Notes under the pieces: model-generated | Seen by the model: the letters and a program-made list of their open reading frames with translations, nothing else | Database searches by the model: none | What the model was told of the DNA's origin: nothing | Position numbers and translations under genes: made by a program | Shown here: positions 3-13,279 of the stretch, one piece after another | Numbering within the stretch: position 1 is the stretch's first letter | Layout: the number at the start of each line of letters is the position of its first letter | Source of the DNA: Candidatus Electrothrix sp. GW3-4 | Lineage (GTDB): Bacteria > Desulfobacterota > Desulfobulbia > Desulfobulbales > Desulfobulbaceae | Direction of reading: 5' to 3' | NCBI RefSeq assembly: GCF_037902255.1 | Contig: NZ_CP147990.1 | Location: 3,540,001 to 3,572,000, forward strand | Length of the DNA: 32,000 bases

Positions 3-1883
3 GATGATAGCGGGAAGATCTGGATAGGGACCGACGGAGGGGGGGTCCATATTTATGAAAACGGGGAGATCAAGCAGGGCCTCACGAAGGATGATGGCAT
101 CTTGGGCAATGTTATCTTTCGCTTCTATAATGATGGAGAGGGTGGGCTCTGGGTGATGACCAATAGCGGCATCTCCATCCTCAAAGACGGACGCATCCAT
201 AACCTCACCTCCCAAAACGGTCTGTTAACCGACACCGTCTTTGAAGTCTTACGCGATAAACAAAATAAGCTCTGGATGACATCGACCTTTGGCCTTTTTT
301 ATGTCACTCAGCATGATCTCAACGAGGTCATCAACGGGCGCAAAGAACGATTCCCCATTGTCCTTTTTGATAGCAACTCAGGACTGGAGAAGAACCCCAC
401 TTCAAACGCCTGGTCTGAACAAGACAGTGCAGGAAATTTCTGGATCGGCACCTATGGTGGGGTGGCTGTTATCAATCCGAAAAATATTCCTATCAACACG
501 ATCTCGCCAAAAGCAATTATCCTCTCGTCCAATATTTCTCCCCGTAACAGCAGCAAAGCCGAAGAACAGGTCATCGTTCCCGCTGATATTGCCCGACTCA
601 ACTTCCATTTCGCGGTCCTCAGCTTTGTTTCCCCTGAAAAAAACCTGCTCCAGTATAAACTGGATGGCTTTGATCAGGACTGGTCGCCTCCTGGCAAACA
701 ACGCAATGTCTCCTACACCAATCTCCCTCCAGGAAACTATGCTTTTCGTGTCAAGGGGATGAATAATGACGGTATTCCTTCGCAGGAAGAGGCGAGACTT
801 CCTTTTTACAAAAATCCACATTATTACGAGCGCCTCTGGTTTCGCCTTGCAAGCGCCTTATCAGTCCTGCTACTTCTGGTTCTGGGAGGCGTCAAGGTGC
901 ATAGGGATCGCATAAAAAAACTGAATCACACCTTGGAGCAGCAAAAACTCCAGATTGAGCTGGCAAAAAAAGCAACCAGGGCAGAACGGCTCGCTAAGGA
1001 AAAGGAAAGGGAACTGTCTGAATCCTACAGTCGCTTTGTTCCCCATGATTTTCTCAATTTCCTCGGGAAAAAGAGTCTCCTTGAAGTTGGTCTCGGCGAC
1101 CAGGTGGAACGAACAATGACGGTCTTATTCGCTGATATTCGTAATTTCACCCAAATTTCCGAAGGACTTACCCCCAAAGAGACCTTTGATTTCATCAATT
1201 CTTTTCTCGGACAAATAGCACCAGCAGTCCAACGCTCCGAAGGTTTTATTGACAAGTACATCGGTGATGCCGTCATGGCCTTATTCGCCTCTGCCCAACA
1301 GGCGCTGCATACAGCTGTCCAAATGAATAAAATCCTCCTCAATCCAAAAACGCAGCAATGTATTAAAAATCATGACCAGGAAATCAGAATTGGCATTGGC
1401 ATCAATACAGGGAACCTCATGCTGGGAACAGTCGGTAATAAACACAGGATGGACGGAACCGTTATAAGCGATGCGGTCAATCTCGCCTCACGTATTGAGC
1501 ATCTCAACAAATACTATGGCTCGAATATCCTCTTCACAGAAGAGACCTATCGCAGGCTGCCCGATACTGATCAGTGGAATATCAGAGAGATTGATCGGGT
1601 TATGGTCAAGGGAAAAACACGGCCTGTAACGCTGTATGAGGCCTTGGATGGATTACCGAAAGATATACGCTCCTTGAAAATCGCTTCGAAACAGCATTTT
1701 GAAGAAGGAGTACATTATTATAGAGCTGGCAAGATGGAGATGGCCCAAGAATTATTCCAAGACTGCTTATCGCAATGTCCGACAGACGAAGCAGCAGAGA
1801 TCTATCTCTGCCGATGTGAGCATTATTTGGTAACCGGGATTGGAGAAGATTGGGACGGAGTGAGCAGACTTGATTTTAAATAA
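3..1883 (+). CDS. Sensor class III adenylate/guanylate cyclase (periplasmic beta-propeller/Y_Y_Y region, one TM helix, cyclase domain, TPR-like tail). The 5' end lies outside the window.
   Basis: The frame is open from nt 3 (DDSGKIWIGTDGGGVHIYENGEI, propeller-type repeat) upstream of the track start at 102. TM segment LASALSVLLLLVLGGV. Cyclase motifs TVLFADIRNFT, KYIGDAVMALF, RIGIGINTGNLMLGTVG and DAVNLASRIE. Confidence 0.85.
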   Translation, partial: DDSGKIWIGTDGGGVHIYENGEIKQGLTKDDGILGNVIFRFYNDGEGGLWVMTNSGISILKDGRIHNLTSQNGLLTDTVFEVLRDKQNKLWMTSTFGLFYVTQHDLNEVINGRKERFPIVLFDSNSGLEKNPTSNAWSEQDSAGNFWIGTYGGVAVINPKNIPINTISPKAIILSSNISPRNSSKAEEQVIVPADIARLNFHFAVLSFVSPEKNLLQYKLDGFDQDWSPPGKQRNVSYTNLPPGNYAFRVKGMNNDGIPSQEEARLPFYKNPHYYERLWFRLASALSVLLLLVLGGVKVHRDRIKKLNHTLEQQKLQIELAKKATRAERLAKEKERELSESYSRFVPHDFLNFLGKKSLLEVGLGDQVERTMTVLFADIRNFTQISEGLTPKETFDFINSFLGQIAPAVQRSEGFIDKYIGDAVMALFASAQQALHTAVQMNKILLNPKTQQCIKNHDQEIRIGIGINTGNLMLGTVGNKHRMDGTVISDAVNLASRIEHLNKYYGSNILFTEETYRRLPDTDQWNIREIDRVMVKGKTRPVTLYEALDGLPKDIRSLKIASKQHFEEGVHYYRAGKMEMAQELFQDCLSQCPTDEAAEIYLCRCEHYLVTGIGEDWDGVSRLDFK

Positions 1884-1890
1884 TACAGGC

Positions 1891-1920
1891 ATGTTCGTCG
1901 AGCAGCGAACATGTTGTTTC
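1891..1920. terminator. Hairpin between convergent genes
   Basis: catgttcg (1891-1898) pairs with cgaacatg (1907-1914) across an 8-nt loop and is followed by ttgttt. It lies between the cyclase stop and the stop of the minus-strand zinc-ribbon gene. Confidence 0.45.
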
Positions 1921-1947
1921 AGCAGACTTCCGTATCTGGGCAAAGAA

Positions 1948-2475
1948 TCAGGCGAAGCAGAGCCCGCAATCAGGACAGGTGGTTTCGGTGGTTGAAAAGC
2001 TATAGCCGCAGGCCGGGCAGGTTGCCTGCTCCGCTTCGGTATCGATGATAGCGCCAGCTGTGGACAGGTCATGATCTTCCAGCCCTGTTGAACGAATATG
2101 ATCGCGCTCAAGAATCGCAACAACATCCTGGAGGTCTTCCCGCCTGATCTGGACAAATAAGTTGGTCCCGCAACTTCCCTGACCGCAGTTACTGTCTTCA
2201 CTGACAGCTATTGACGGAATTCCTTCCCGTTTGAGCATGGTCTGAAAATCCTTCATCTGCACAAGAGGACCCTTTCTGATGCTCACCAGTTCATCATCTG
2301 GGCTTATCACCATATTGCGGCCCGCCTGGTTTCGCACCAAGTCCTGCTGTGCTGCCAGCATTTCCTTGCCGCTGACAAGGGAGATTCGACAAGCGGCACA
2401 GGTCGTGATCTCTGCCCGGTATTCATCCATGCAGTTTGGGCAATACTGTAACTCCGCTTCAATTGCTCGTTTCAT
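1948..2475 (-). CDS. Hypothetical cytoplasmic protein with paired CxxC zinc-ribbon motifs at both ends
   Basis: 175-aa ORF. N-terminus CPNC..(11)..CAAC and C-terminus CPACG..(9)..CPDCG. The start lies 11 nt after the stop of the upstream 78-aa ORF. I recognise no family. Confidence 0.6.
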   Translation of the reverse strand: MKRAIEAELQYCPNCMDEYRAEITTCAACRISLVSGKEMLAAQQDLVRNQAGRNMVISPDDELVSIRKGPLVQMKDFQTMLKREGIPSIAVSEDSNCGQGSCGTNLFVQIRREDLQDVVAILERDHIRSTGLEDHDLSTAGAIIDTEAEQATCPACGYSFSTTETTCPDCGLCFA

Positions 2476-2485
2476 CTCTTGCCCA

Positions 2486-2722
2486 TTACCCCTGATCTGT
2501 TATAAAATTGTTTGCAACAATAGGCTGCTCTGTCATCAGCTCATGGGCCACAACCTTTTCTTTCCCCTGATGATTCCCTTCGAGTGCGGTGCTCGCTCCG
2601 CCCAACCAAGCAAACATAACCAAAAAGGTCACGCCTAAAACATACACTGCCAACATCAAATACCCTGGATCAAGAGCTGAACGCAATTCACTGCGGTTCT
2701 GGTTTTCTTTCCTCATCAACAT
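2486..2722 (-). CDS. Small exported/membrane protein (78 aa) whose signal-anchor region is paralogous to the N-terminus of the sortase substrate
   Basis: DPGYLMLAVYVLGVTFLVMFAWLGGASTALEGN aligns with DPGYLMIVIYTLGVAMLILFGWFGSADAASEGK of the 3460-5604 protein. GGGGA lies just upstream of the ATG. The ORF has its own copy of the upstream box architecture. Confidence 0.55.
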   Translation of the reverse strand: MLMRKENQNRSELRSALDPGYLMLAVYVLGVTFLVMFAWLGGASTALEGNHQGKEKVVAHELMTEQPIVANNFITDQG

Positions 2723-2765
2723 CGTCCCCTTTGTTTACAGACCAACTATCGCCTCTTACTTTTGT

Positions 2766-2839
2766 AGTATGTCCCAAGACCATGACGGACTCTCTGATCG
2801 ATTATGACTTACCAGTAAAGAATAATGACAAATCATGAC
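2766..2839 (-). promoter_or_regulatory. Candidate activator-dependent promoter: four GTCAT boxes plus a CATACT -10
   Basis: On the plus strand ATGAC occurs at 2782, 2804, 2825 and 2835 (spacings 22, 21, 10). agtatg at 2766-2771 (CATACT on the coding strand) lies 10 nt from the proximal box. The geometry is the same as at 5655-5728. Confidence 0.5.
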
Positions 2840-2896
2840 AAAACACTAATACTCGATAACCAACCGATGTACATGGAAGAATCACAAAGAAAAAAA

Positions 2897-3463
2897 CTAT
2901 ATTCTGTCTGCCAAAACAACATAACGCTGACTGGCATCTGCACTCATCCCCTGAAAAGGGTAACAGGTGACCAAGGCGAGCTGCGCACCTTGGTCCCGAT
3001 CAAAATAAAGATCTGTGGCAAGCCGTATCGTCGTTACATTCACCCTATATCGCCACTGCCTGCCCAGACTGTCTTCCAACGTAAAAATATCCCCCTTTTG
3101 CACCTTACGGAGAAAACTGAATTGGGTATCCCGGTGAGCTGCCAAAATACAGGGACCTGCCTGTCCCGGCTGAACTCCTGTCTCCAGCATACCTGGTCCA
3201 AAGGCAAGGGCCTGCCCTGACTGTCCTGCAAGGACAATCAGATCCTGGCTGTATTTTTCAGCACGTAGCCTCGCCACTGGCCAGGTATCGGCCCATGGCC
3301 AGGGCTTTACCAATACTCCCTGGCTCTGACTCTGCTGCCAGGCCTGTTGCAGGAGCACTTGCGCTAACAGGGCCTTGCCGTGTATCCACAGCCCATTGCC
3401 CAAGCAGAGGAGCCCGACGATAGCGGGAAAAAGAAGCAGTTTCCATGAGCATGTTATCTTCAT
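2897..3463 (-). CDS. Sortase of the Gram-negative (class GN / marine proteobacterial) type
   Basis: Catalytic-type motifs ILAAHRDT (His), LVTCYPF (Cys) and QRYVV (Arg), plus an N-terminal TM anchor. I prefer the start at ATG 3463, which is preceded by AAGGAGGAG and overlaps the upstream stop as ATGA. The track start at 3484 would place that RBS inside the coding sequence. Confidence 0.85.
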   Translation of the reverse strand: MKITCSWKLLLFPAIVGLLCLGNGLWIHGKALLAQVLLQQAWQQSQSQGVLVKPWPWADTWPVARLRAEKYSQDLIVLAGQSGQALAFGPGMLETGVQPGQAGPCILAAHRDTQFSFLRKVQKGDIFTLEDSLGRQWRYRVNVTTIRLATDLYFDRDQGAQLALVTCYPFQGMSADASQRYVVLADRI

Positions 3464-5604
3464 TGTCTCCTCCTTTGTATCCAAAATAAGAGAGCAGATA
3501 AGGAGAGCAAGAAAAAACCAACAAAAATGAGCAGAGATGCTGGGGTAGCGGTATCAGCTCCTCCGGCAAAGACCTTTTCATGCACCCAGCCAGCAGGCAA
3601 GTTGGTTTGCACCTTCTGCTTCTGTAACGGCGTCTCATCATCAGGTCGCGCTACCTTTTCTTCCACAGCTACCAAGCTGGTATAGCGGCTGACAAGATGG
3701 TTGGTCAAAGCCAGTTCTGTAACCTCCTGTTTGACCCGATGAGGGTCTGCTCCAGCGGCTAGGCTGTCCATCAGAATTCTGATTTTCTTTCTTGCCCAAA
3801 GCACGGCAATCCCCGGCCTGTTGATAAAACGTGAGGCATCTATGGTTGCTTGCCAGGGTTTTCCACCGCCCTGCCGTCCAGAGAGAACCAGATTATCAGG
3901 TGCCCCCTGCCCCTTTATAAGCACAGTCAGGGGTTCCCCCTGATAGAGATCCGGGAGCGGGTCAGGAAGGGCTTCAAATCCATCCGTCCCAGCCAGCTGA
4001 AGATTGATGAGAGCAGGTTGCTCAAGCATGGCAAAGAGGGTCGTCATCTTATCTCGCACCTCATCCAACTTACCGATAAAGGTATAACTTCCTCTACCTA
4101 TCATTGCCGCCCTGGTCATGAAATAACTGTTCGGAGCCGAGCCGATCCCGACGGTGAACAGCCGGGAATCTCCGAGCTGATTCTTGATCAATCGGAATAA
4201 CTCTTCTTCATTGCTGACCGACCCATCTGTTAAAAAAACAAGCTGACGAATCCGCTCATGCCGCTGTGTCCCATCCAGGGCCAATTTCAGAGCCTTCCTG
4301 ATCTCTGTACCACCGTTGGCCTCAAGCTGATCGATAAAGGCCACAGCCCGATCTTTATTTTCCCGACTGCCTGCCTTACTCTCACGAAACAAGGCGCTCG
4401 CCCTGCTATTAAACGCAATAACATTGAATCGGTCCTGCGGACGCATGCGTTCCACCGCCATAAGTAAGGCCTTCTTGGCCTGCCTGATGGATGCCCCACC
4501 CATTGAACCAGAGGTATCAAGGATAAAAACAACCTCTCGGGCAAGGGGAGACTGTTGCTCCTGCTCCGGTGGCAGGACCATGAGCAGCATGTAGCGCTCA
4601 TCCCCCTGCTGTTCACTAAAGAGACTCACCGTTGGCACCTGCGTTCTTTTCGGCTCCCATTCCAGAACAAAATCGCGATCCGCCTTTACTTCTCCGGTAA
4701 ATCGGATATCAAGATTGTCATCTTCATTTTTCTCGCTTGCAATACCGTGATACAGGCTATCGAGCCGAGAGAGTTCCATGCCAGCAGCAAGATTCACATG
4801 CAAGGTCACCGGATTAATCGGTGGTTCATCCGGCCCAACAACGGCGAGCTCCTCCAAGGCAGGAGGTTGGGTATTAGTAGTTCCGTCTTCAACGCCCTCC
4901 CATCTTCCATTTCCAGAGGCAACACCAGTAGCGGGAGGAGGCCCTGGGGTATATCGCGGCCCAATAACCATGGGAAAACGCAACGAGTAAATTCGGCCCT
5001 GCCGCTGCACCACCTGCTGATATTCAAGCTGAATAATGACAGTTTCTCCGGGACCAATATTAGCAACCGCAGTGGTAAAGATGTTGGGACGGGCCTGCGA
5101 GAGCAATGAGGCCTTCTTCCCCTCCAGCTTTGCCGTCTCATAAGTTTTACGGGCCTCTTCCTTTTCCTGAATCTTCCCGACAATAATGCGTTCGTTAATC
5201 CGCATCTCCAGATGATCCACAGCACTCTCGTCAGGCAGGGGAAAGACGTACAAGGCCTCGACCCATTGATTCGAATCATTAGTAAAATGCTGTGTAACCG
5301 TAGCCCGGGCAACTATACCACTCACCCTGATATCAACATCCAGAGAGAGCATAGGGGCAGACCGATAGGTTCCCGGCTCCGCCCCAGGGAGAAGGAGCTC
5401 GCCCTGTTGGACCTCGTTGGGCGTCAGCAGTTCTTGCTGCCCAGCTTGGTTAAACAGCCCTTTTCCTTCGGAAGCAGCGTCAGCACTTCCAAACCAGCCA
5501 AACAGGATAAGCATGGCCACCCCAAGGGTATAGATTACTATCATTAAATAACCGGGATCCATGTGTAGGACCTGTACACCTCTTTTTTTCTCACCTGATG
5601 TCAT
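3460..5604 (-). CDS. Sortase substrate: VIT domain + von Willebrand A domain protein with a C-terminal sorting-signal-like tail
   Basis: Signal-anchor YLMIVIYTLGVAMLILFGWFG followed by SADAAS. VIT-like region ATVTQHFTNDSNQWVEALYVFPLPDESAV. vWA MIDAS motif VFILDTSGSMGG. C-terminus ADTATPASLLIFVGFFLLSLSALLFWIQRRRQ. I chose the start at ATG 5604 (GGGGAGGA lies 7 nt upstream). The 60-codon track extension is not signal-like. Confidence 0.85.
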   Translation of the reverse strand: MTSGEKKRGVQVLHMDPGYLMIVIYTLGVAMLILFGWFGSADAASEGKGLFNQAGQQELLTPNEVQQGELLLPGAEPGTYRSAPMLSLDVDIRVSGIVARATVTQHFTNDSNQWVEALYVFPLPDESAVDHLEMRINERIIVGKIQEKEEARKTYETAKLEGKKASLLSQARPNIFTTAVANIGPGETVIIQLEYQQVVQRQGRIYSLRFPMVIGPRYTPGPPPATGVASGNGRWEGVEDGTTNTQPPALEELAVVGPDEPPINPVTLHVNLAAGMELSRLDSLYHGIASEKNEDDNLDIRFTGEVKADRDFVLEWEPKRTQVPTVSLFSEQQGDERYMLLMVLPPEQEQQSPLAREVVFILDTSGSMGGASIRQAKKALLMAVERMRPQDRFNVIAFNSRASALFRESKAGSRENKDRAVAFIDQLEANGGTEIRKALKLALDGTQRHERIRQLVFLTDGSVSNEEELFRLIKNQLGDSRLFTVGIGSAPNSYFMTRAAMIGRGSYTFIGKLDEVRDKMTTLFAMLEQPALINLQLAGTDGFEALPDPLPDLYQGEPLTVLIKGQGAPDNLVLSGRQGGGKPWQATIDASRFINRPGIAVLWARKKIRILMDSLAAGADPHRVKQEVTELALTNHLVSRYTSLVAVEEKVARPDDETPLQKQKVQTNLPAGWVHEKVFAGGADTATPASLLIFVGFFLLSLSALLFWIQRRRQ

Positions 5605-5654
5605 GAGCACATCCTCCCCTATTGATAAAAATTGTTCTGCTCTTTCCTGGATAC

Positions 5655-5728
5655 AGTATGAACGATGATCATGACGGACTTTCAGCAGGATGATGACGTG
5701 TCTTAAAAAAAAAATGACAGTCTGTGAC
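5655..5728 (-). promoter_or_regulatory. Candidate activator-dependent promoter of the substrate-sortase operon (pho-box-like direct repeats)
   Basis: On the plus strand ATGAC occurs at 5671, 5693 and 5714 and GTGAC at 5724 (spacings 22, 21, 10). agtatg at 5655-5660 (CATACT on the coding strand) lies 10 nt from the proximal box. The distal pair reads TTGTCACAGACTGTCAT on the coding strand. Confidence 0.5.
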
Positions 5729-5893
5729 AAGTGGCTCCTACCTATAAAAAAGGATGTCTTCCTGAAGGGAAATATGCTACTCAATAAGTATAGGGTTATA
5801 ACAGCGGAAAAATATTCATGGTCTCAAGGGGATATTTCTGCCCCAAAACATAACAGGCTATCATTCTAATACGATTTAAAAAGGAGGAGAGAC

Positions 5894-6376
5894 ATGTTGA
5901 AAAAAGTATCTGTGGGATGTTTCATTGGTGTTATGCTGCTGAACAACGTCCTCTTTGCTCAAGGGGAAGAAATGCCAAAACCAGAAGCAGAGTCGGTTTG
6001 GCAGTATATTACTCAGGAAAAACCCTTCACAGACTGGTCCTTCTGGCCGGATCATCAAGGAACGAACCCCAGTAATGCTCCACATGCCCCAAAGCATAAA
6101 ATATACGTGAACACACAGGCATTGCATTCGAAACAACCGCCACTGCAAGACGGGTCAATGGTGGTAAAGTATAACCTGAGCCCGGCAGATGAGGTGAAGG
6201 CGATAACGCTCATGTACAAGGTAAAGGGATACAACCCTGATGCTGGTGACTGGTTTTGGGTGCAGTACAGCCCGACCGGTGAGGTGTACGAAGCAGGAAA
6301 GCTTGAAAAATGTATAGGTTGCCATGCAGCCAAGTCAGCATCAGACTATATTTTGGTGCATAAGTTCAACAATTGA
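5894..6376 (+). CDS. Secreted mono-heme protein, cytochrome P460-like family
   Basis: RBS AAGGAGGAG. Signal peptide ending VLFAQG. A single CIGCH heme motif near the C-terminus, preceded by DAGDWFWVQYSPTGEVYEAGK, a pattern I associate with P460-type proteins. Confidence 0.65.
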   Translation: MLKKVSVGCFIGVMLLNNVLFAQGEEMPKPEAESVWQYITQEKPFTDWSFWPDHQGTNPSNAPHAPKHKIYVNTQALHSKQPPLQDGSMVVKYNLSPADEVKAITLMYKVKGYNPDAGDWFWVQYSPTGEVYEAGKLEKCIGCHAAKSASDYILVHKFNN

Positions 6377-6394
6377 CATTTTCCAGCAAACCTC

Positions 6395-6459
6395 CTACGC
6401 AGAAGAAATAACAAAAGAATACCAGCCTGTTAAATGAAAGCGTTTTTTCTTCTGCGTAG
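6395..6459. repeat. Perfect 14-bp inverted repeat with a 37-nt spacer downstream of the P460-like gene
   Basis: ctacgcagaagaaa (6395-6408) is the reverse complement of tttcttctgcgtag (6446-6459). No T-run follows, so a terminator role is uncertain. Confidence 0.4.
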
Positions 6460-6588
6460 CTGAACAAAAAATGACCGCATACATAACGTATATAAGCACT
6501 CTGAAATAAAAACAAAATCCGCCCAGAACAACTTCATTGACAATCCTACCTGCCATTTTGTATCATAAAATATTATAAGCTAACGATT

Positions 6589-6687
6589 GATGGTTTCGTA
6601 AAAAATCCAATTTTACGGAAACTCGTACCGTAACTCACTGAGTTGCCGTTGCCTACTTGCTATTTTTCGACTTTTTACCAGATCATC
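6589..6687. mobile_element. MITE-like element, copy A (99 bp, terminal inverted repeats, flanking direct repeat AACGATT)
   Basis: About four-fifths identical by manual alignment to 24281-24378. The left end GATGGTTTCGTAAAAA matches the reverse complement of the right end, GATGATCTGGTAAAAA. AACGATT occurs at 6582-6588 and again at 6688-6694. Confidence 0.65.
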
Positions 6688-6756
6688 AACGATTCGGTCA
6701 AAAAAGATCCGTCCTCCTCTTGGTTCTCGCATAACTCAAACCAGTAACAAGATATT

Positions 6757-7326
6757 ATGACGACTCAAACAGCATCAAAGCAACTATACCTCGAAAAAAG
6801 ATCGTCCCTAGGAGCAGGAGCACTCTGCCTCCTCTTGTCCCTGACTACGACGGGCCCGAGTAACGCAGCAGGAGAGCACCAAGCTGTTGATTCAGCAGCC
6901 ATGACTGCGGCCCATAACCAATGGCGCGCAAAAACAGGTGTTCCCCACCTCAAATGGTCGACAATCTTAGCAGGAAGCGCTCAAGAATGGGCAAAACATC
7001 TGGCGCAAACGGGCTGTAATATGCAACACAGTACAACAGCATATGGCGAAAACATCTTTTGGGCTGGCCCCCTTTCTTCTTCTAACGGAACATCGTCTGT
7101 ACAAGAGATAACCGAGCAAAATGTGGTCGATGCATGGGGTAATGAGGTGCAGTATTATAATTACGCCAACAACAGCTGCCACGGAGTCTGTGGTCATTAC
7201 ACCCAAGTGGTCTGGAAGAGCACAAAGGAAGTGGGCTGCGGCATGGCACTCTGCCCGGATAAAGGGCAAATCTGGGTATGCCAATATAACCCGCAAGGTA
7301 ATCTCATCGGCCAAAAGCCCTATTAA
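6757..7326 (+). CDS. Secreted CAP/SCP/PR-1 domain protein
   Basis: Signal peptide (LCLLLSLTTTGPSNAAG). CAP signatures HNQWRAK, YGENIFW, GHYTQVVWKSTKEVGCG and VCQYNPQGN. Confidence 0.8.
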   Translation: MTTQTASKQLYLEKRSSLGAGALCLLLSLTTTGPSNAAGEHQAVDSAAMTAAHNQWRAKTGVPHLKWSTILAGSAQEWAKHLAQTGCNMQHSTTAYGENIFWAGPLSSSNGTSSVQEITEQNVVDAWGNEVQYYNYANNSCHGVCGHYTQVVWKSTKEVGCGMALCPDKGQIWVCQYNPQGNLIGQKPY

Positions 7327-7454
7327 CTCCTGGTCAGCAGGTAGGAATTTCTTTACACGCCCCATGAATTCCTTTATGGTATCGTATTACTTTGATCTAA
7401 CGAGAGCCTCGCAAATTTTCTCCTGTTAACCCGAAACAGGCTGTAGATATCGCT

Positions 7455-8147
7455 ATGACCTACCGTATTGCCCTTGTCGAAGATGATTCCAGGTTACAGG
7501 CCAATTATGCTCAGGCCCTCCAGCGCGAAGGCTATGACGTGGCCACCTATAGCAGTAAACCCGAGGCCATGTCTGCCTTTGCCCGCTCCCTGCCAGACCT
7601 TGCTATCTTGGACGTCATGCTGGGAGAAGAACTGGCTGGTGGCTTTGACCTCTGCCAGCACCTCCGCTCTTTATCCCCTGTTATACCTATCATTTTCCTT
7701 ACAGCACGCAATTCAGACCTGGATCGGGTCTCTGGCCTCCGACTTGGGGCCTGGGACTACCTGACCAAGGACACAACAACCCTGGACTTTCTGCCCGCCA
7801 GGATATCTGCCATGTTTCGAACCGTTGAGGCCTTACGGAGCAATACAACGGAAAATAAGATCATCCGACATAAGGACCTCCAGATTGACGAGGATCGGAA
7901 GGAGGTCTACTGGAAAAGACATGCGGTCAGCCTGACCCTGACTGAGTTCTGGATCTTGGTTTGCCTTGCCAAGAGACCAGGACATGTCAAAAATCATGAG
8001 CAGTTGATGGAGGCAGCCAGCGTTATTGTGACGAATAATGCGATTGCAGCCCATATCAGAAGAATCAGAGATAAATTTTACGATGTAGATCCTGACTTTA
8101 AGGCTATTCGCTCAGAGTATGGGATGGGGTATCGCTGGCAGCCATGA
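7455..8147 (+). CDS. OmpR/PhoB-family response regulator (dedicated sortase-system regulator type)
   Basis: Receiver domain (IALVEDD, LAILDVMLG, IIFLTAR) and a winged-helix output domain (LTLTEFWILVCLAKRPGHV, YGMGYRW). It is linked to the sortase and its substrate. Confidence 0.85.
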   Translation: MTYRIALVEDDSRLQANYAQALQREGYDVATYSSKPEAMSAFARSLPDLAILDVMLGEELAGGFDLCQHLRSLSPVIPIIFLTARNSDLDRVSGLRLGAWDYLTKDTTTLDFLPARISAMFRTVEALRSNTTENKIIRHKDLQIDEDRKEVYWKRHAVSLTLTEFWILVCLAKRPGHVKNHEQLMEAASVIVTNNAIAAHIRRIRDKFYDVDPDFKAIRSEYGMGYRWQP

Positions 8148-8209: not shown

Positions 8210-10357
8210 ATGCGTTTTTCTCTGCGCCTCAAGCTTGCCCTCCTCTCCCTTCTGCTCCTTCTCTTCCCCTTACTGGGGATGCGCCTGAACAATACCTTAA
8301 AAAACAGCCTGATCATCAGTCAGCAGGATACCCTCAGCCTTACTGCCCAAGCGGTTTCAGCGGCATTAACCGACCGAAACGACCTCTTTGACAGAGAACA
8401 GTTTCACGGCCTCAATCAGGACCGGGATCTCTATCTCTTCCAGCTCAGCAATACCATACAATTAGATGGCAATTTGGACGATTGGCGTCCCGAACTTGCT
8501 GAAGCTGAAGAATTTGGTCGTGAGCATCTCATCAGTTCAGAAGGCAGCTATGTTCTCCAATCCCTTAATTTCCGCCATCTTGCTGGCAAGCAGGACAAGT
8601 ACCTGTACGCACTCTTTGATGTACAGGACGATCATGTCATTTATCGAAGCAAAAACTCATTACGCCTTGACCGTTCTGATCATTTACAAATAGTGATAGG
8701 TGATGATAACGGACAGAGAAAATATCTGATCACAGCCCATGAGCAAGGCTGGGTGAATGGTTTTCTCATGCCTGATGTTCCGATTAAATTTCCTGTCATC
8801 GAACAACGAATTCAAGGGGTATGGAATCAAACCGACAGCGGCTATATCCTGGAAATTCGTATTCCTCTGGAGCTGCTCGGAAACAAACTTGCCTTCACAG
8901 TCGCTGATGTCGATGACATTGAAACAAGAGATATCAAGGCGTTAATAGGCACTTCCAACTTAAAGGAAGACAAGGCTCCGGGCCTGCTCCTCACGACCTC
9001 AACTCCCATTGAAGATATACTGAAATCTCTTGATCGCCCCTATGCACGTATTCGCATTGTCGATCGCAATCAAAGGGTGAGAGCTCAGGTCGGCAGCCTG
9101 CGTACCTCTGAAATACCTCAAGAACAGGTGAGCACACTCTCTCGTCGCATAAACGAATTCATGCGCCCTCTCTATCGTTTTTTTATCAATCCTTTTTTAG
9201 CGGAATTTCAGGATCAGGCCTCCCAACCAACGGAATTGGACCTGCAAGGAATCCGAGAGGGACTTGCTGGCAAACATTCTGTAACCAGCTACTTAATGGA
9301 AGATGGGCAAGTGAAGGTAATGGCGGCCATTACGCCTTTATATGAGCAGGACCAGGTCATTGGTGCCGTGGTTGTAGAGCAGACCACCAACTCGATTCTT
9401 TCACTCAGCAACCGCTTAATCGAAGAAACCATTTCCCTCTCTGTTATTGCCTTTCTCTTTGGTGGTTGCGTCCTGCTCTTTTTCGCCTTTCGGATCTCCG
9501 CACGGATTCGGCGTTTACGCGATCAGGCGGCCTCGGCAATCACGCCTGACGGTCGGATCCTCAACACCATTCACAGGGATTCAGCAAGTGATGAAATCGC
9601 TGATTTAGGCCGCACCTTAGATTCCATGCTCACCCAGCTCCAGCAGCAGATTGAGCATCGCGAGCAAATGGCTGATAACCTTGAGCACGAAATGCGAACG
9701 CCCTTAGCTGGCATTGCCGCATCAGTAAAAAATCTTCGTCAGGAACAGCTTGAGGCAAAACCATCTGGTCGTATTATGGAGTATATTCAGTGGGTAAAAC
9801 GAGATGTTCAGCGATTGGAAGAGCTTCTCACCTCAATTCGGGAGGCCACTACCTTGAAGAATGCCCTGCTACTGGACAGTATGGAGGTGTTTGATCTTGG
9901 CAGGGCCGTATCAGTATGGCTTGAGCACGGTTGGCGACCTGCCTTTAGTGAGGTAGAGATCCTTTATCAGGCTCCTGAACATGAGGTGCTGGTCAACGGC
10001 GACCCGGTTCGTTTACGCCAGGCTTTAGATAAGCTTGTCGAAAATGCCGTTTCTTTCCATACAGCGGACACACCAATTGAGCTCTGCTTAGAAAACTATG
10101 ATGACTGTATATCTCTGCTCGTTATCAATCAAGGCCCAATTATCGAACCAGAGATGCAGCAGCAAATATTTCACTCGATGATCTCCAATCGAGCGATCAA
10201 AGATAAGTCACCCCACCTGGGCCTTGGCCTATATATTGTTCGTACGGTGCTGGACCATCATGATGGGCAGGTGAGTGTTGAAAACCTGTCTGACGGGAGA
10301 ACAGGAGTTGTTTTTACGATTACGCTGCCCAGTACATCAGAGAATGAGCCTTTATAA
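8210..10357 (+). CDS. Sensor histidine kinase with a large periplasmic domain (dedicated sortase-system kinase type)
   Basis: N-terminal TM LALLSLLLLLFPLLG, a ~380-aa periplasmic region (LDGNLDDWRPE, DHLQIVIGDDNG), and a second TM ISLSVIAFLFGGCVLLFFAF. H-box LEHEMRTPLAG. ATPase boxes ENAVSF and HLGLGLYIV. Confidence 0.85.
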   Translation: MRFSLRLKLALLSLLLLLFPLLGMRLNNTLKNSLIISQQDTLSLTAQAVSAALTDRNDLFDREQFHGLNQDRDLYLFQLSNTIQLDGNLDDWRPELAEAEEFGREHLISSEGSYVLQSLNFRHLAGKQDKYLYALFDVQDDHVIYRSKNSLRLDRSDHLQIVIGDDNGQRKYLITAHEQGWVNGFLMPDVPIKFPVIEQRIQGVWNQTDSGYILEIRIPLELLGNKLAFTVADVDDIETRDIKALIGTSNLKEDKAPGLLLTTSTPIEDILKSLDRPYARIRIVDRNQRVRAQVGSLRTSEIPQEQVSTLSRRINEFMRPLYRFFINPFLAEFQDQASQPTELDLQGIREGLAGKHSVTSYLMEDGQVKVMAAITPLYEQDQVIGAVVVEQTTNSILSLSNRLIEETISLSVIAFLFGGCVLLFFAFRISARIRRLRDQAASAITPDGRILNTIHRDSASDEIADLGRTLDSMLTQLQQQIEHREQMADNLEHEMRTPLAGIAASVKNLRQEQLEAKPSGRIMEYIQWVKRDVQRLEELLTSIREATTLKNALLLDSMEVFDLGRAVSVWLEHGWRPAFSEVEILYQAPEHEVLVNGDPVRLRQALDKLVENAVSFHTADTPIELCLENYDDCISLLVINQGPIIEPEMQQQIFHSMISNRAIKDKSPHLGLGLYIVRTVLDHHDGQVSVENLSDGRTGVVFTITLPSTSENEPL

Positions 10358-10490: not shown

Positions 10491-11765
10491 CTAGTAAATC
10501 CCCAAGGCCTCTACAGTCTCTTTTGTCAGTCCGCCCCCCTGAGCAAGTCCATTTTCACCCTGAAAAGCTCGAATAGCCTCATTGGTTGCCGGATTCAGCT
10601 TTCCATCAATCAGGCCGTTGTAAAAACCCAGCTGGCTTAAGGCTGTCTGTACCTGACGGATAGTTGAGTCAACAAGTTCGTCCTTACACAGTGCTGGCTT
10701 CCAGACTATCCTGGAATCGCTCACTTTAACCTTTTTAACAATGGTCTTGTACTCAGCAGGAACTGAAATAATATTCTCTTCTGCCGGTTTGACGAGTTTC
10801 TTTACCTTGACCGTTTTGTACTCAGGAGGAACAGGGACAGTACGTGACTGGGCCGGAGCGACCATTACTTTCTTCCTGATCATCTGGGTGACCGCAGGTA
10901 TGGTGACGACCTCCGTTCTCGCCGGAGCAACCATTACCTGCTTACGTACAGTTCCATATTCTGCTGGTATGGTGACGATTTCTGTCCTGGCAGGCTCAAC
11001 AACAACCCTTTTCCGAACAGTCTTGTATTCAGCAGGAATAACAACTTCCTGGCGGCATCCACCGATTTCACCTGCACAGTCTTTCGGTACTTTCTTGATC
11101 ACCGTCTTGTACATGGCTGGAACAGCTACGTAACATAGAGTATCACAGTCGGTCAACCCCATCTTAATATCTTCTGGTGAACAATGGGTGGTCTTTTTAA
11201 TCCATTTTGCAGAAGGTGCCTTAACCAAAACCTGCTCTTTCACCTCCTCATAACCAGGATCAGTGATGGTGATGGTGACAACTTCAGGAGAAACCATCAC
11301 CTGCTCATCTACCCATTCATACCGGGCAGGGATAGATTGCAGCTCCTCAGAAGCCTCCTTGATCACGACCTGTTCATCACGCCATTCATACTGGGCAGGA
11401 ATGACGTTAATCTCTTCTGAACCTTCTTTGATAACGACCTCTTCATCCCTCCACTCAAACTGGGCAGGAATTGTCTCAATCTTCTCAGAAGCTTCTTTAG
11501 CGATAACCCGTTCGTCAATCCATTCATACTCAGCCGGGATAATTTCTGTTCGTTCCATAGCTGGTGCAATCTCAATTTCTTCCTCTACATCCTCATAGAC
11601 AGCAGGAGCAAGACAACGAGAGTAACACTCACCAGGCTGAACATTGGCCGGGAATCCCTCATTAATGAATTGAGCCGGATCAATCTGACCATACTGAGCA
11701 GCTGCGGGTGAAGATACCGCGAAGAGCAAAGCGGCAGCTACCACGAAATTCCTTTTCTTCAACAT
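10491..11765 (-). CDS. Secreted repeat protein (about eleven ~23-aa xPAxY repeats, Cys-rich centre) with a C-terminal PG_binding_1-type domain; paralog 2
   Basis: I prefer the start MLKKRNFVVAAALLFAVSSPAAAQ at 11765 because the track extension runs into the intergenic hairpin. Repeats include IPAEYEWIDERVIAKEASEKIET and IPAEYKTVRKRVVVEPARTEIVT. C-terminus LSQLGFYNGLIDGKLNPATNEAIRAFQGENGL. Confidence 0.75.
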   Translation of the reverse strand: MLKKRNFVVAAALLFAVSSPAAAQYGQIDPAQFINEGFPANVQPGECYSRCLAPAVYEDVEEEIEIAPAMERTEIIPAEYEWIDERVIAKEASEKIETIPAQFEWRDEEVVIKEGSEEINVIPAQYEWRDEQVVIKEASEELQSIPARYEWVDEQVMVSPEVVTITITDPGYEEVKEQVLVKAPSAKWIKKTTHCSPEDIKMGLTDCDTLCYVAVPAMYKTVIKKVPKDCAGEIGGCRQEVVIPAEYKTVRKRVVVEPARTEIVTIPAEYGTVRKQVMVAPARTEVVTIPAVTQMIRKKVMVAPAQSRTVPVPPEYKTVKVKKLVKPAEENIISVPAEYKTIVKKVKVSDSRIVWKPALCKDELVDSTIRQVQTALSQLGFYNGLIDGKLNPATNEAIRAFQGENGLAQGGGLTKETVEALGIY

Positions 11766-11826
11766 TTCTTCTTTTTCCCTTTTTCTGATACGTATTCTCG
11801 GGTTATACGGTGTAAAAACAGAAAGA

Positions 11827-11845
11827 GGCACTTAAAAAAGTGCCC
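11827..11845 (-). terminator. Intergenic hairpin between the two paralogs
   Basis: ggcactt (11827-11833) pairs with aagtgcc (11839-11845) across a 5-nt A loop. T-rich sequence follows on both strands. Confidence 0.4.
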
Positions 11846-11872: not shown

Positions 11873-13279
11873 CTAGTAGATTCCTAAAGACTCAAGCGTT
11901 TCGATGGTCATCCCACCACCCTGCGGTAAGGCACGATCTGCCTGATAGGCTCTCAGTGCCTCATTGGTCTCCGGGGTCAGGACACCATTAATCTCACCAG
12001 CGTAAAAGCCTTCTCGACTCAAAGCACTTTGCATTTCTCTGATCTTCGAATCAACGGCTTCATCCTCACAAAGAGCCGGACGCCATACGATCTTACTATC
12101 GCTAACTTTAACTTTTTTGATAATAGTCTTGTATTCGGCAGGAACCTGAATAACGTTTTCCTCAGCCGCTTTCACAAGCTTTTTCACCTTGACTGTCTTG
12201 TACTCAGCAGGAACCGGGATAACCTCTGTTCTGGCAGGCTCAACCATTACCCTCTTCCGTACCATTCTGTACTCAGCAGGTATATTAACGACTTCTGTCC
12301 TGGCAGGCTCAACCAAAACCTGCTTGCGTACCATTCTGTACTCAGCAGGAATCTGAACCGTTTCGGTCCTTGCGGGCTCTACCACAACCTTTGTTCTGAT
12401 CGGCTTGTATTCTGCCGGGATGACCACTTCCTGACGGCATCCGTCAACTCCACCAGCACAGTCCGTGGGTACCTTTTTGATAACCGTCTTATACATAGCC
12501 GGGACGGCTACATAACAAAGGGTATCACAGTCGGTCAGTCCCATCTTGATATCTTCAGGAGAGCAATGCGTCGCTTTTTTAATCCACTTTGCAGAAGGCG
12601 CCTTGACCAAAACCTGCTCTTTCACCTCTTGAAAACCGGGATCGGTCAGAGTAATCTTGACCATCTCAGGAGAAACCATAACCTGGCCTTCACGCCAAGC
12701 ATAAACTGCGGGAATAGCTTTAAGCTCTTCGGAAGCCTCTTTTACCACTTCCTGAACATCCTGCCACTCGTACCGGGCAGGAATAACCTTGATCTCCTCT
12801 GACGCCTCTTTTACCAAGACCTCTTCTTCGACCCAATCATATTGTGCAGGAATGACCTTAATCTTTTCAGATGCCTCTTTGGCAATGACCTCTTCATCCA
12901 CCCATTCGTATTCGGCAGGAATGATCTCGGTCCGCTCCATCGCTGGAGCTACCTCAATTTGCTCTTCTACATCTTCAAACACAGCCGGAGCAAGACAGCG
13001 AGAGTAGCACTCACCAGGGTTAACATTGGTCGGCAGCCCTTCACCAAGGTCCTGCTGTGCAACCATTGGCGCAGCAGCAACTGGCCCAGACATCTGCACA
13101 ACATCTTGAGCGACAACCTGCTGGGCAGCCTGTTGCTCTCCTTTTGCCTCTTCACAAGGGCCCTGAACACAGGGCTGTTCACCAGAACCCTGCGGGACAT
13201 AGGCTACGTCCGCCACACAACCAGTTAAGGCAAAAAGAGCGATAGCCCCGATGGCCACGCCATTCTTCATCTGTTTCAT
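11873..13279 (-). CDS. Lipoprotein repeat protein (same xPAxY repeat architecture) with a C-terminal PG_binding_1-type domain; paralog 1
   Basis: RBS AAGGAGAGG. Lipobox LFALTGC. A Q/A-rich linker, then acidic repeats (IPAEYEWVDEEVIAKEASEKIKV), then basic repeats (IPAEYRMVRKQVLVEPARTEVVN). C-terminus LSREGFYAGEINGVLTPETNEALRAYQ. Confidence 0.8.
   Translation of the reverse strand: MKQMKNGVAIGAIALFALTGCVADVAYVPQGSGEQPCVQGPCEEAKGEQQAAQQVVAQDVVQMSGPVAAAPMVAQQDLGEGLPTNVNPGECYSRCLAPAVFEDVEEQIEVAPAMERTEIIPAEYEWVDEEVIAKEASEKIKVIPAQYDWVEEEVLVKEASEEIKVIPARYEWQDVQEVVKEASEELKAIPAVYAWREGQVMVSPEMVKITLTDPGFQEVKEQVLVKAPSAKWIKKATHCSPEDIKMGLTDCDTLCYVAVPAMYKTVIKKVPTDCAGGVDGCRQEVVIPAEYKPIRTKVVVEPARTETVQIPAEYRMVRKQVLVEPARTEVVNIPAEYRMVRKRVMVEPARTEVIPVPAEYKTVKVKKLVKAAEENVIQVPAEYKTIIKKVKVSDSKIVWRPALCEDEAVDSKIREMQSALSREGFYAGEINGVLTPETNEALRAYQADRALPQGGGMTIETLESLGIY

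Follow-up and report, generated by a model that had tools for sequence, protein, structure and literature searches.

At ompF and ompC, the regulator OmpR occupies three contiguous dimer sites of about 20 bp (F1-F2-F3 and C1-C2-C3), each with a stronger and a weaker 10-bp half-site, and these are filled hierarchically and cooperatively from the high-affinity distal site toward the -35 region. The regulator CreB recognises the "cre-tag" TTCACnnnnnnTTCAC, a TCAC-type direct repeat that forms a single 11-bp-spaced pair. At the pho promoters of PhoB, Makino et al. reportedly found the proximal pho box 10 bp upstream of the -10 hexamer. The pho box is composed of two 11-bp tandem direct-repeat units, each of seven conserved and four AT-rich bases, and both PhoB and its TGTCA tract are conserved (PMC4415409, PMC4447250). 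The element described here lies in a 32,000-nucleotide stretch of the Candidatus Electrothrix sp. GW3-4 genome (contig NZ_CP147990.1, positions 3,540,001 to 3,572,000), referred to below as the window. Two promoters of the window carry the same array of four GTCAY boxes, one in front of an operon encoding a sortase target protein and its sortase (the Pds system), the other in front of a small open reading frame (ORF) of 78 amino acids.

To our knowledge, sortase systems of Gram-negative bacteria that come with a two-component system of their own are widespread and almost unstudied, and the only functional data that we know of link the kinase PdsS to beta-lactam resistance in Shewanella algae. 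The S. algae pdsS mutation G547W raises the expression of pdsO, target and sortase genes 799-, 388- and 126-fold, that of pdsR 18-fold and that of pdsS itself 4.8-fold (PMC11580497). The same study mentions no promoter or binding site (PMC11580497), and no description of a PdsR operator was found in the literature searched. Judged from its sequence and setting, each array of the window is likely to be such an operator, belonging to a sigma-70 promoter that depends on an activator; the PdsR-like response regulator encoded at 7455-8147, with the kinase encoded at 8210-10357 as its partner, would recognise it in the phosphorylated state.

Read on the minus strand, which is the coding strand, both promoters have the layout box1-N5-box2-N16-box3-N17-box4-N10-CATACT, with box starts 10, 21 and 22 bp apart. 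The promoter of the target operon (5655..5730, minus strand) consists of box 1 GTCAC at 5728-5724, box 2 GTCAT at 5718-5714, box 3 GTCAT at 5697-5693 and box 4 GTCAT at 5675-5671, followed by a 10-nt spacer and a -10-like CATACT at 5660-5655. The paralogous promoter of the small ORF (2766..2841, minus strand) has GTCAT at 2839-2835, 2829-2825, 2808-2804 and 2786-2782, then a 10-nt spacer and CATACT at 2771-2766. An earlier sequence-only reading of this DNA had listed the elements from the plus strand, and on re-reading the sequence its box coordinates (ATGAC at 2782, 2804, 2825 and 2835 and at 5671, 5693 and 5714, GTGAC at 5724) and the identical spacing were all correct; AGTATG is at 2766-2771 and 5655-5660. 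It had also noted that the extended proximal box is the same in both promoters and that AGTATG stands at the same distance from it; indeed CATGACGGACT is found at 2781-2791 and again at 5670-5680, with AGTATG exactly 10 nt away from the proximal box in both copies. On the coding strand the two distal pairs read TTTGTCATGATTTGTCAT and TTGTCACAGACTGTCAT. With one mismatch allowed, the four-box pattern has two matches in the 32 kb and none in 100 dinucleotide-preserving shuffles, and four RTGAC boxes cluster within 62 bp at just two places of the window, which are these arrays.

All boxes of an array point in one orientation and start at 0, 10, 31 and 53, roughly 0, 1, 3 and 5 helical turns; the four box starts fall on one face of the helix. 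The distal pair alone is in tandem, with a register of 10 bp, and box 3 and box 4 each stand alone, separated by two helical turns. The OmpR/PhoB-type geometry that had been proposed for the arrays is supported by the same-orientation phased repeats, with the classical tandem register confined to the distal pair. Nor is that register the one of a pho box, being 10 bp as against 11 bp. The pho-like placement was borne out, with the hexamer 10 nt past the proximal box. Transcription starts are predicted near 5648 in the target promoter and near 2759 in the small-ORF promoter. If the hexamer is taken as -12 to -7, the boxes of the target promoter would lie at about -80, -70, -49 and -27, with box 4 at about -27 to -23, and the repeats would overlap the -35 position. 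No -35 element was seen in the array promoters (the target promoter has GAAAGT at 17-bp spacing), and a sigma-70 scanner calls neither of them. A sigma-54 or extracytoplasmic function (ECF) sigma promoter was considered and rejected: neither GG-N10-GC nor a GAAC/CGT-type element is present, and TttAnT is locked 10 nt from box 4. A scan of 1900-7500 against Rfam returned only a sub-threshold match to SorX (E = 0.35) and no known leader RNA.

The arrays were followed through 80 loci that encode homologues of the target protein, from Electrothrix (74% identity), from other Desulfobulbales (about 48-56%) and, for the remainder, from Gamma-, Beta- and Alphaproteobacteria and Nitrospira (about 43-49%). 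A scan for GTCAY at the four positions, with 1 bp of slack and on both strands of 1.16 Mb (the 80 loci plus the window), gave 24 matches of three or more boxes; 17 of these are complete four-box arrays. The 24 all have the orientation of the target gene and all are in Desulfobulbales loci. Most directly precede the target gene or a small ORF with an N-terminal DPG motif and transmembrane helix (DPG-TM ORF), three stand a few hundred nucleotides upstream, and none was found elsewhere in these loci. The spacing is exactly 10-21-22 in 22 of 22 strict Desulfobulbales copies, orthologous or paralogous. When the copies are aligned on box 4 without gaps, the consensus is TtGTCAtaaT.tGTCATttTT(N12)tGTCAt.aTt(N13)tGTCAT..Tc.T.g..TttA.T, and about 95% of the Desulfobulbales boxes are GTCAT or GTCAC. 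Among 29 copies, whose target proteins are as little as about 48% identical, mean pairwise identity is 0.87 in the boxes, 0.63 in the hexamer, 0.43 in the spacers and 0.31 in the flanks. A hexamer nnnAnT lies exactly 10 nt past box 4 in 26 of the 29 copies (0-3 at shifted offsets), and the best match to TTGACA at a spacing of 16-18 bp reaches at most 3/6 in all 29. This pattern looks like the clear phylogenetic footprint of an activator-dependent promoter. An alignment of orthologous promoters had been named by the sequence-only reading as a check on its proposal, and the boxes proved to be conserved at orthologous loci with their spacing intact.

Some of these loci have further peculiarities. 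In an Electrothrix metagenome contig (L082, 3990-4060) the distal pair of the target promoter is lost, reading GTCAA...TTCAT, though box 3, box 4 and CATACT are still there; in the small-ORF promoter of this contig all four boxes remain. A repeated element resembling a miniature inverted-repeat transposable element, with the motifs ctaactcttcgttg and cctcgatttag, lies between array and target gene in L014 (7700-7990) and just upstream of the array in L020 (about 7620-7770).

The two arrays of the window do not represent independent occurrences of one architecture. The alignment of their upstream regions needs no gap between distal box and hexamer and, after a 1-nt indel, runs on through the Shine-Dalgarno sequence into the first 50 codons or so. 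The N-terminus of the 78-aa ORF is 43% identical to that of the target protein (E = 9e-13), and the N-terminal part of both proteins is made up of a short cytoplasmic tail, the motif DPGYLM and a single transmembrane helix. By their sequences the two arrays are paralogues, and promoter, leader and an anchor of about 50 codons were duplicated together as one segment. The identical spacing within the window is accounted for by this descent and therefore is no independent evidence. Between the paralogues, 19 of 20 box positions and 6 of 6 hexamer positions are identical as against 27 of 50 spacer positions (Fisher p = 6.5e-4), a difference that bears the signature of selection on the boxes. A generic search for direct repeats in 2400-5800 missed the promoter paralogy, the identity being about 60% and the exact seeds short. 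The duplication predates the speciation of Electrothrix, as the orthologous small-ORF promoters group on their own.

Where a locus has a second array, the ORF that this array drives is small and has the same N-terminal DPG-TM part. Orthologous arrays precede the same small ORF in L002, L081, L082, L083 and L084; in L002 the ORF has 78 aa (10795-11031) and the same place as in the window, and here too the gene of the zinc-ribbon protein DG follows it. An 88-aa ORF of this kind lies upstream of the target gene in L003 (4518-4784) and a 75-aa ORF in L012 (7537-7764). Together they make up a small family of single-pass membrane proteins of 75-88 aa, each member with a four-box promoter of its own, and in Electrothrix the DG gene always follows. 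Three cable-bacterium genomes (L081, L083 and L084) have no target and sortase genes in the locus and have kept the response regulator and kinase genes, the array, the small ORF and the DG gene. Here the small ORF and DG are directly divergent from the genes of a CAP-domain protein, the regulator and the kinase, and the four-box array is intact (around 6650-7250 in L083 and L084). L081 also has a fossil target promoter at 6541-6773, with all four boxes and CATACT and a target-gene remnant of 35 codons. Because the array survives the loss of target and sortase in these three loci, its comparative record ties it to the regulator and kinase; to judge from these sequences, it travels with them and not with the sortase as such.

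The usual layout of a Pds locus has the kinase and regulator genes on one side and target and sortase genes on the other, diverging from a shared intergenic region. Gamma- and betaproteobacterial loci have arrays of the same geometry, with boxes at 0, 10/11, 20/21, 31/32 and 53/54. In L023 these are GTCAG at 0, GTCAG at 10, ATCAT at 20, ATCAG at 31 and GTCAT at 53, then N10 and TTTACT, and in L051 they are GCCAT at 0, GCCAT at 11, ATCAG at 21, GCCCT at 32 and GCCAT at 54, then N10 and TTTAAT. The regulators of these loci pass the TIGR03787 cutoff (354 and 383 bits). The gamma- and betaproteobacterial arrays stand in the intergenic region divergent from the regulator, in front of pdsO where it is present and otherwise in front of the target gene. 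Where a gene intervenes between array and target in gamma/beta loci, its product is PdsO, as in L051 and L070; in the gamma loci L051, L062, L070 and L078 the array is in the shared divergent region before pdsO. Loci that have no adjacent regulator and kinase (Nitrospira and most Alphaproteobacteria) showed no evident phased array by eye and by a crude count. That count of phased boxes, set against adjacency of the regulator, separated the groups weakly; several gamma loci have the array more than 1 kb upstream of the target, before pdsO, and the count skipped the degenerate cores GTCAG, ATCAT and GCCCT. It was replaced by anchored alignment and strand-specific counts of the box cores.

The regulator of the window (7455..8147, plus strand) is an OmpR/PhoB-family response regulator that best matches TIGR03787 (307.3 bits, curated cutoff 335.7); the next family is CreB with 144.5 bits, and PhoB models give 121-124 bits. 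Its recognition helix is VTNNAIAAHIRRIRDKF. The recognition helices of these regulators keep a PhoB-like core, H-I-(R/K)-R-(I/L)-R, and differ by lineage. When box cores were counted on the target strand of the intergenic DNA near the regulator and grouped by recognition helix, the 13 loci with a TNNAI-type helix had 27 GTCA and 0 GCCA cores, the 12 loci with a DD[S/G/T] or DEG-type helix had 2 GTCA and 23 GCCA, and 7 loci with a DDA-type helix had 9 GTCA and 5 GCCA. The opposite strand is almost devoid of boxes. Whether a box core reads GTCA or GCCA varies together with the recognition helix of the neighbouring PdsR-type regulator, and within the gamma/beta loci alone the covariation, taken by locus, has a Fisher p of 0.009. 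The sequence-only reading had preferred the adjacent regulator over PhoB as the putative binder, a choice now favoured by this covariation and by the GCCAT cores of many gamma arrays.

The architecture alone was also used to scan metagenomes. The matches listed comprised 80 loci, about 60 of them short tandem repeats that meet the pattern trivially. At least nine sortase-system loci are among the 20 non-repetitive matches listed, and no pho or pst gene neighbours any of these 20. Two soil-metagenome contigs (L100, 1244-1304, plus strand; L144, 379-439, minus strand) have GTCAC, GTCAT, GTCAA, GTCAT and GTCAC at 0/10/21/31/53; this is the geometry of the sortase arrays, in a place with no Pds genes or clear bacterial ORF downstream.

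Three other explanations of the arrays have to be weighed against recognition by the PdsR-like regulator. The boxes might be genuine pho boxes bound by the PhoB of the cell, with the sortase system and the small ORF as part of the phosphate-starvation regulon. The likeness is real: tGTCAT with its A/T-rich bases is close to the E. coli pho half-site CTGTCAT with its AT-rich spacer (PMC4415409; PMC4447250), the proximal box precedes the -10 hexamer by the same 10 bp as in pho promoters, and the PhoB-model scores of the dedicated regulator show how close the families are. Pho boxes, however, are two 11-bp tandem units, whereas the tandem pair of the arrays has 10 bp in all 22 strict copies and the remaining boxes stand singly at intervals of 21-22 bp. 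PhoB contacts TGTCA, but 12 gamma/beta loci have GCCA as their core, and the core follows the helix of the dedicated regulator. Target loci without PdsR and PdsS have no obvious array, though PhoB would be expected there as well. No pst or pho genes are near the arrays in the 1.16 Mb of loci or among the metagenome matches listed, and no PstS, PhoU or PhoB-like genes were found in any examined locus with E. coli sequences as queries. In S. algae a mutation of the PdsS kinase alone induces the operon more than 100-fold (PMC11580497). Control by PhoB is thus very unlikely. That the similarity of the two promoters is a neutral residue of recent duplication, with no regulatory function, has even less in its favour. 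The window copies are demonstrably paralogous, leader and coding sequence included, yet the duplication is older than Electrothrix speciation, the boxes remain 87% identical while the spacers drop to 43%, and a single-copy array is present in genera with target proteins about 50% identical and in other phyla. A non-functional duplication remnant was rejected on this cross-species conservation, and its chance is close to nil.

A third explanation would give the boxes to another, unlinked transcription factor or nucleoid protein, activator or repressor, with the dedicated regulator acting elsewhere or indirectly. It draws on the perfect arrays of L004 and L013, which have no regulator and kinase genes within 8 kb, and on singleton boxes at two-turn spacing, which are unusual for OmpR/PhoB-family response regulators. 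On the other hand, helically phased repeats in one orientation and with pho-like placement suit a winged-helix response regulator. At most loci the array is in the dedicated regulator's own divergent intergenic region, its core covaries with the recognition helix of that regulator, and it has been retained together with the regulator and kinase where target and sortase were lost. An unlinked binder is on this evidence unlikely.

Several observations weigh against recognition by the PdsR-like regulator. The regulator and kinase of the window score under the curated TIGR03787 and TIGR03785 cutoffs. The covariation of helix and box is partly confounded by phylogeny, as Desulfobulbales differ from the gamma/beta group in both. 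In Desulfobulbales no conserved tandem partner accompanies box 3 or box 4, which is atypical for the dimeric binding of the OmpR/PhoB family and leaves the stoichiometry uncertain. Perfect four-box arrays stand upstream of the target gene in L004 and L013, and no PdsR- or PdsS-like genes were found within 8 kb on either side; their regulator may be encoded elsewhere in the genome. The specificity seen in metagenomes is that of a sample dominated by tandem repeats among the matches listed. Finally, the S. algae PdsS mutation could in principle act by derepression and not by activation.

With the PdsR-like regulator as the likely binder, the arrays suggest the following mechanism. Each box (tGTCAYnnT) would be one winged-helix half-site, bound head-to-tail. 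The well-conserved tandem distal pair, at about -80 and -70, would nucleate binding of the regulator. Dimers would then extend cooperatively over the single strong half-sites at about -49 and -27, whose partner half-sites would be degenerate in Desulfobulbales and can be seen in gamma arrays at position 20/21. With 10 bp left between it and the -10 hexamer, the proximal protomer would stand in for the absent -35 element and recruit sigma-70 RNA polymerase in the manner of PhoB. Through the second array, which arose by duplication, the regulator would control the small membrane protein and the zinc-ribbon gene DG as well. Binding itself, its cooperativity, the activating direction and the transcription starts are here what we infer from the arrangement of the boxes.

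A variant of this proposal holds that the regulatory unit of cable bacteria is not truly "dedicated" to the sortase and that the small protein is a feedback modulator or decoy. The small protein could act on the PdsS-like kinase, or on whatever recognises the DPG anchor, as MgrB acts on PhoQ. The idea is doubtful at present; if true, the array would form the output of a feedback loop that senses the envelope.

The genes around the arrays are those of a Pds system with local additions. The sortase target protein (3460..5604, minus strand; 714 aa) has VIT and vWA domains and the N-terminal DPG-transmembrane anchor, matches TIGR03788 with 720.7 bits (cutoff 551.65) and is 100% identical to an annotated protein of Candidatus Electrothrix sp. 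GW3-4, a cable bacterium. The class GN sortase (2897..3463, minus strand) matches TIGR03784 with 191 bits (cutoff 158.25). The two genes adjoin, as in a Pds system, and both products are above their family cutoffs. The longest sortase ORF extends to 3484, where it starts at TTG; the likely start is the ATG at 3463, which overlaps the TGA stop of the target gene (ATGA, 3460-3463) and suggests translational coupling. No PdsO was seen in the window, there being no OmpA-like ORF between array and target gene.

The small membrane protein (2486..2722, minus strand) has 78 aa when read from the first ATG; the annotated form has 76 aa and starts at the better-spaced ATG 2716. It is a paralogue of the target N-terminus, with the cytoplasmic tail, DPG motif and one transmembrane helix, to which a conserved short C-terminal tail is added. 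Its homologues form 38 clusters of about 75-85 aa in Electrothrix and are conserved over the full length, with invariant D, P, G and Y that are common to the target N-terminus. Immediately downstream is the gene of the zinc-ribbon (seleno)protein DG (1948..2475, minus strand; NF049953, 219.8 bits, cutoff 130), which is probably co-transcribed from the second array. The same pairing of small ORF and DG is found in L002 and L081-L084. Just past the DG gene, a 593-aa protein is encoded (102-1883, plus strand) in which Reg_prop/Y_Y_Y sensor domains are fused to an adenylate/guanylate cyclase domain.

The sensor histidine kinase (8210..10357, plus strand) is PdsS-like by synteny and by its best match, TIGR03785 (544.4 bits, curated cutoff 612.2). 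Since TIGR03787 and TIGR03785 are by far the best families for the regulator and kinase and the synteny is conserved, the two are treated as PdsR-like and PdsS-like members of what appears to be a divergent Desulfobulbales branch, not as curated equivalogs. Between array and regulator, and divergent from the target operon, are two genes inserted in Electrothrix, one cytochrome P460-like (5894-6376, plus strand; Pfam PF16694, 41.4 bits) and one with a CAP domain of the cysteine-rich secretory family (6757-7326, plus strand; PF00188, 89.4 bits). The CAP-domain insert is present in L081-L084 also; among these loci, L081 is the only one with a call for the P460-like gene. Ahead of the CAP gene, at 6537-6566 on the plus strand, is a near-consensus sigma-70 promoter, TTGACA-18-TATCAT (11/12). 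Just past the kinase gene are two paralogous proteins with C-terminal PG_binding_1 domains (10491-11831 and 11873-13279, both minus strand), and one or more genes with this domain flank the kinase in L081-L084 as well. These proteins may be functional stand-ins for the missing PdsO.

A defined operator would make the PdsR regulon predictable by motif scanning, from its span of 53-54 bp, its fixed distance from the -10 hexamer and a core that changes with the recognition helix, and it would give a testable design for binding and reporter experiments. GTCA and GCCA cores, with TNNAI and DDSTI helices respectively, form a natural specificity-swap pair for the question of how members of the OmpR/PhoB family diverge from PhoB without cross-talk. 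In cable bacteria the arrays point to two co-regulated outputs, one the sortase substrate and the other the small membrane protein with the zinc-ribbon protein. In some of these bacteria the small membrane protein, which shares its control with the sortase substrate, is still present where the sortase has been lost.

The pdsO-target-sortase operon of S. algae (PMC11580497) belongs to the same gene system as the operon of the window, and its induction fits an array in the divergent intergenic region before pdsO. Electrothrix, unlike S. algae, has no pdsO at this position, has the P460-like and CAP genes before the regulator, and has a second array driving the small ORF together with DG. Of the characterised paralogues, CreB is closest to the window regulator (second-best family, 144.5 bits), and its site too is a TCAC-type direct repeat; the cre-tag, however, lacks the four-box 10-21-22 architecture and serves a different regulon. 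With the OmpR sites the arrays share their extent: a span of about 63 bp, from about -82 to -20, matches three units at 0/10, (21)/31 and (42)/53. The OmpR half-site, in contrast, is GTTACA-like, and a hierarchy of sites at the Electrothrix arrays would be read from the conservation pattern only.

The pho boxes of E. coli pstS, phoA and phoB are alike in having (T)GTCA(T/C) repeats in the same orientation and in helical phase, accompanied by A/T-rich bases, with the proximal repeat 10 bp before the -10 and no -35 element. The presumed binder is in both cases a phosphorylated winged-helix regulator of the OmpR/PhoB family, which would contact region 4 of sigma-70. The 11-bp unit of pho boxes, always in tandem pairs, is replaced in the arrays by a 10-bp pair and singletons at 21 and 22 bp. 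The TGTCA tract is present in Desulfobulbales and gives way to a GCCA core in many gamma/beta versions, 12 loci in all. The gene context differs as well: every array in orthologous loci stands at a sortase-system gene or a small DPG-TM ORF. The genes under the arrays are those of a sortase system and a small membrane protein and not of phosphate scavenging, and a PdsR-like regulator is the likely binder. With OmpR/PhoB-type operators the arrays share same-orientation repeats at whole helical turns that reach over the -35 position, and an adjacent or divergent Trans_reg_C regulator whose recognition helix covaries with the box core. Activation that depends on phosphorylation would be in keeping, indirectly, with the overexpression of the operon in the S. 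algae PdsS mutant (PMC11580497). On these sequence features they are best filed as an apparently undescribed, pho-box-like direct-repeat operator for a regulator of the OmpR/PhoB family.

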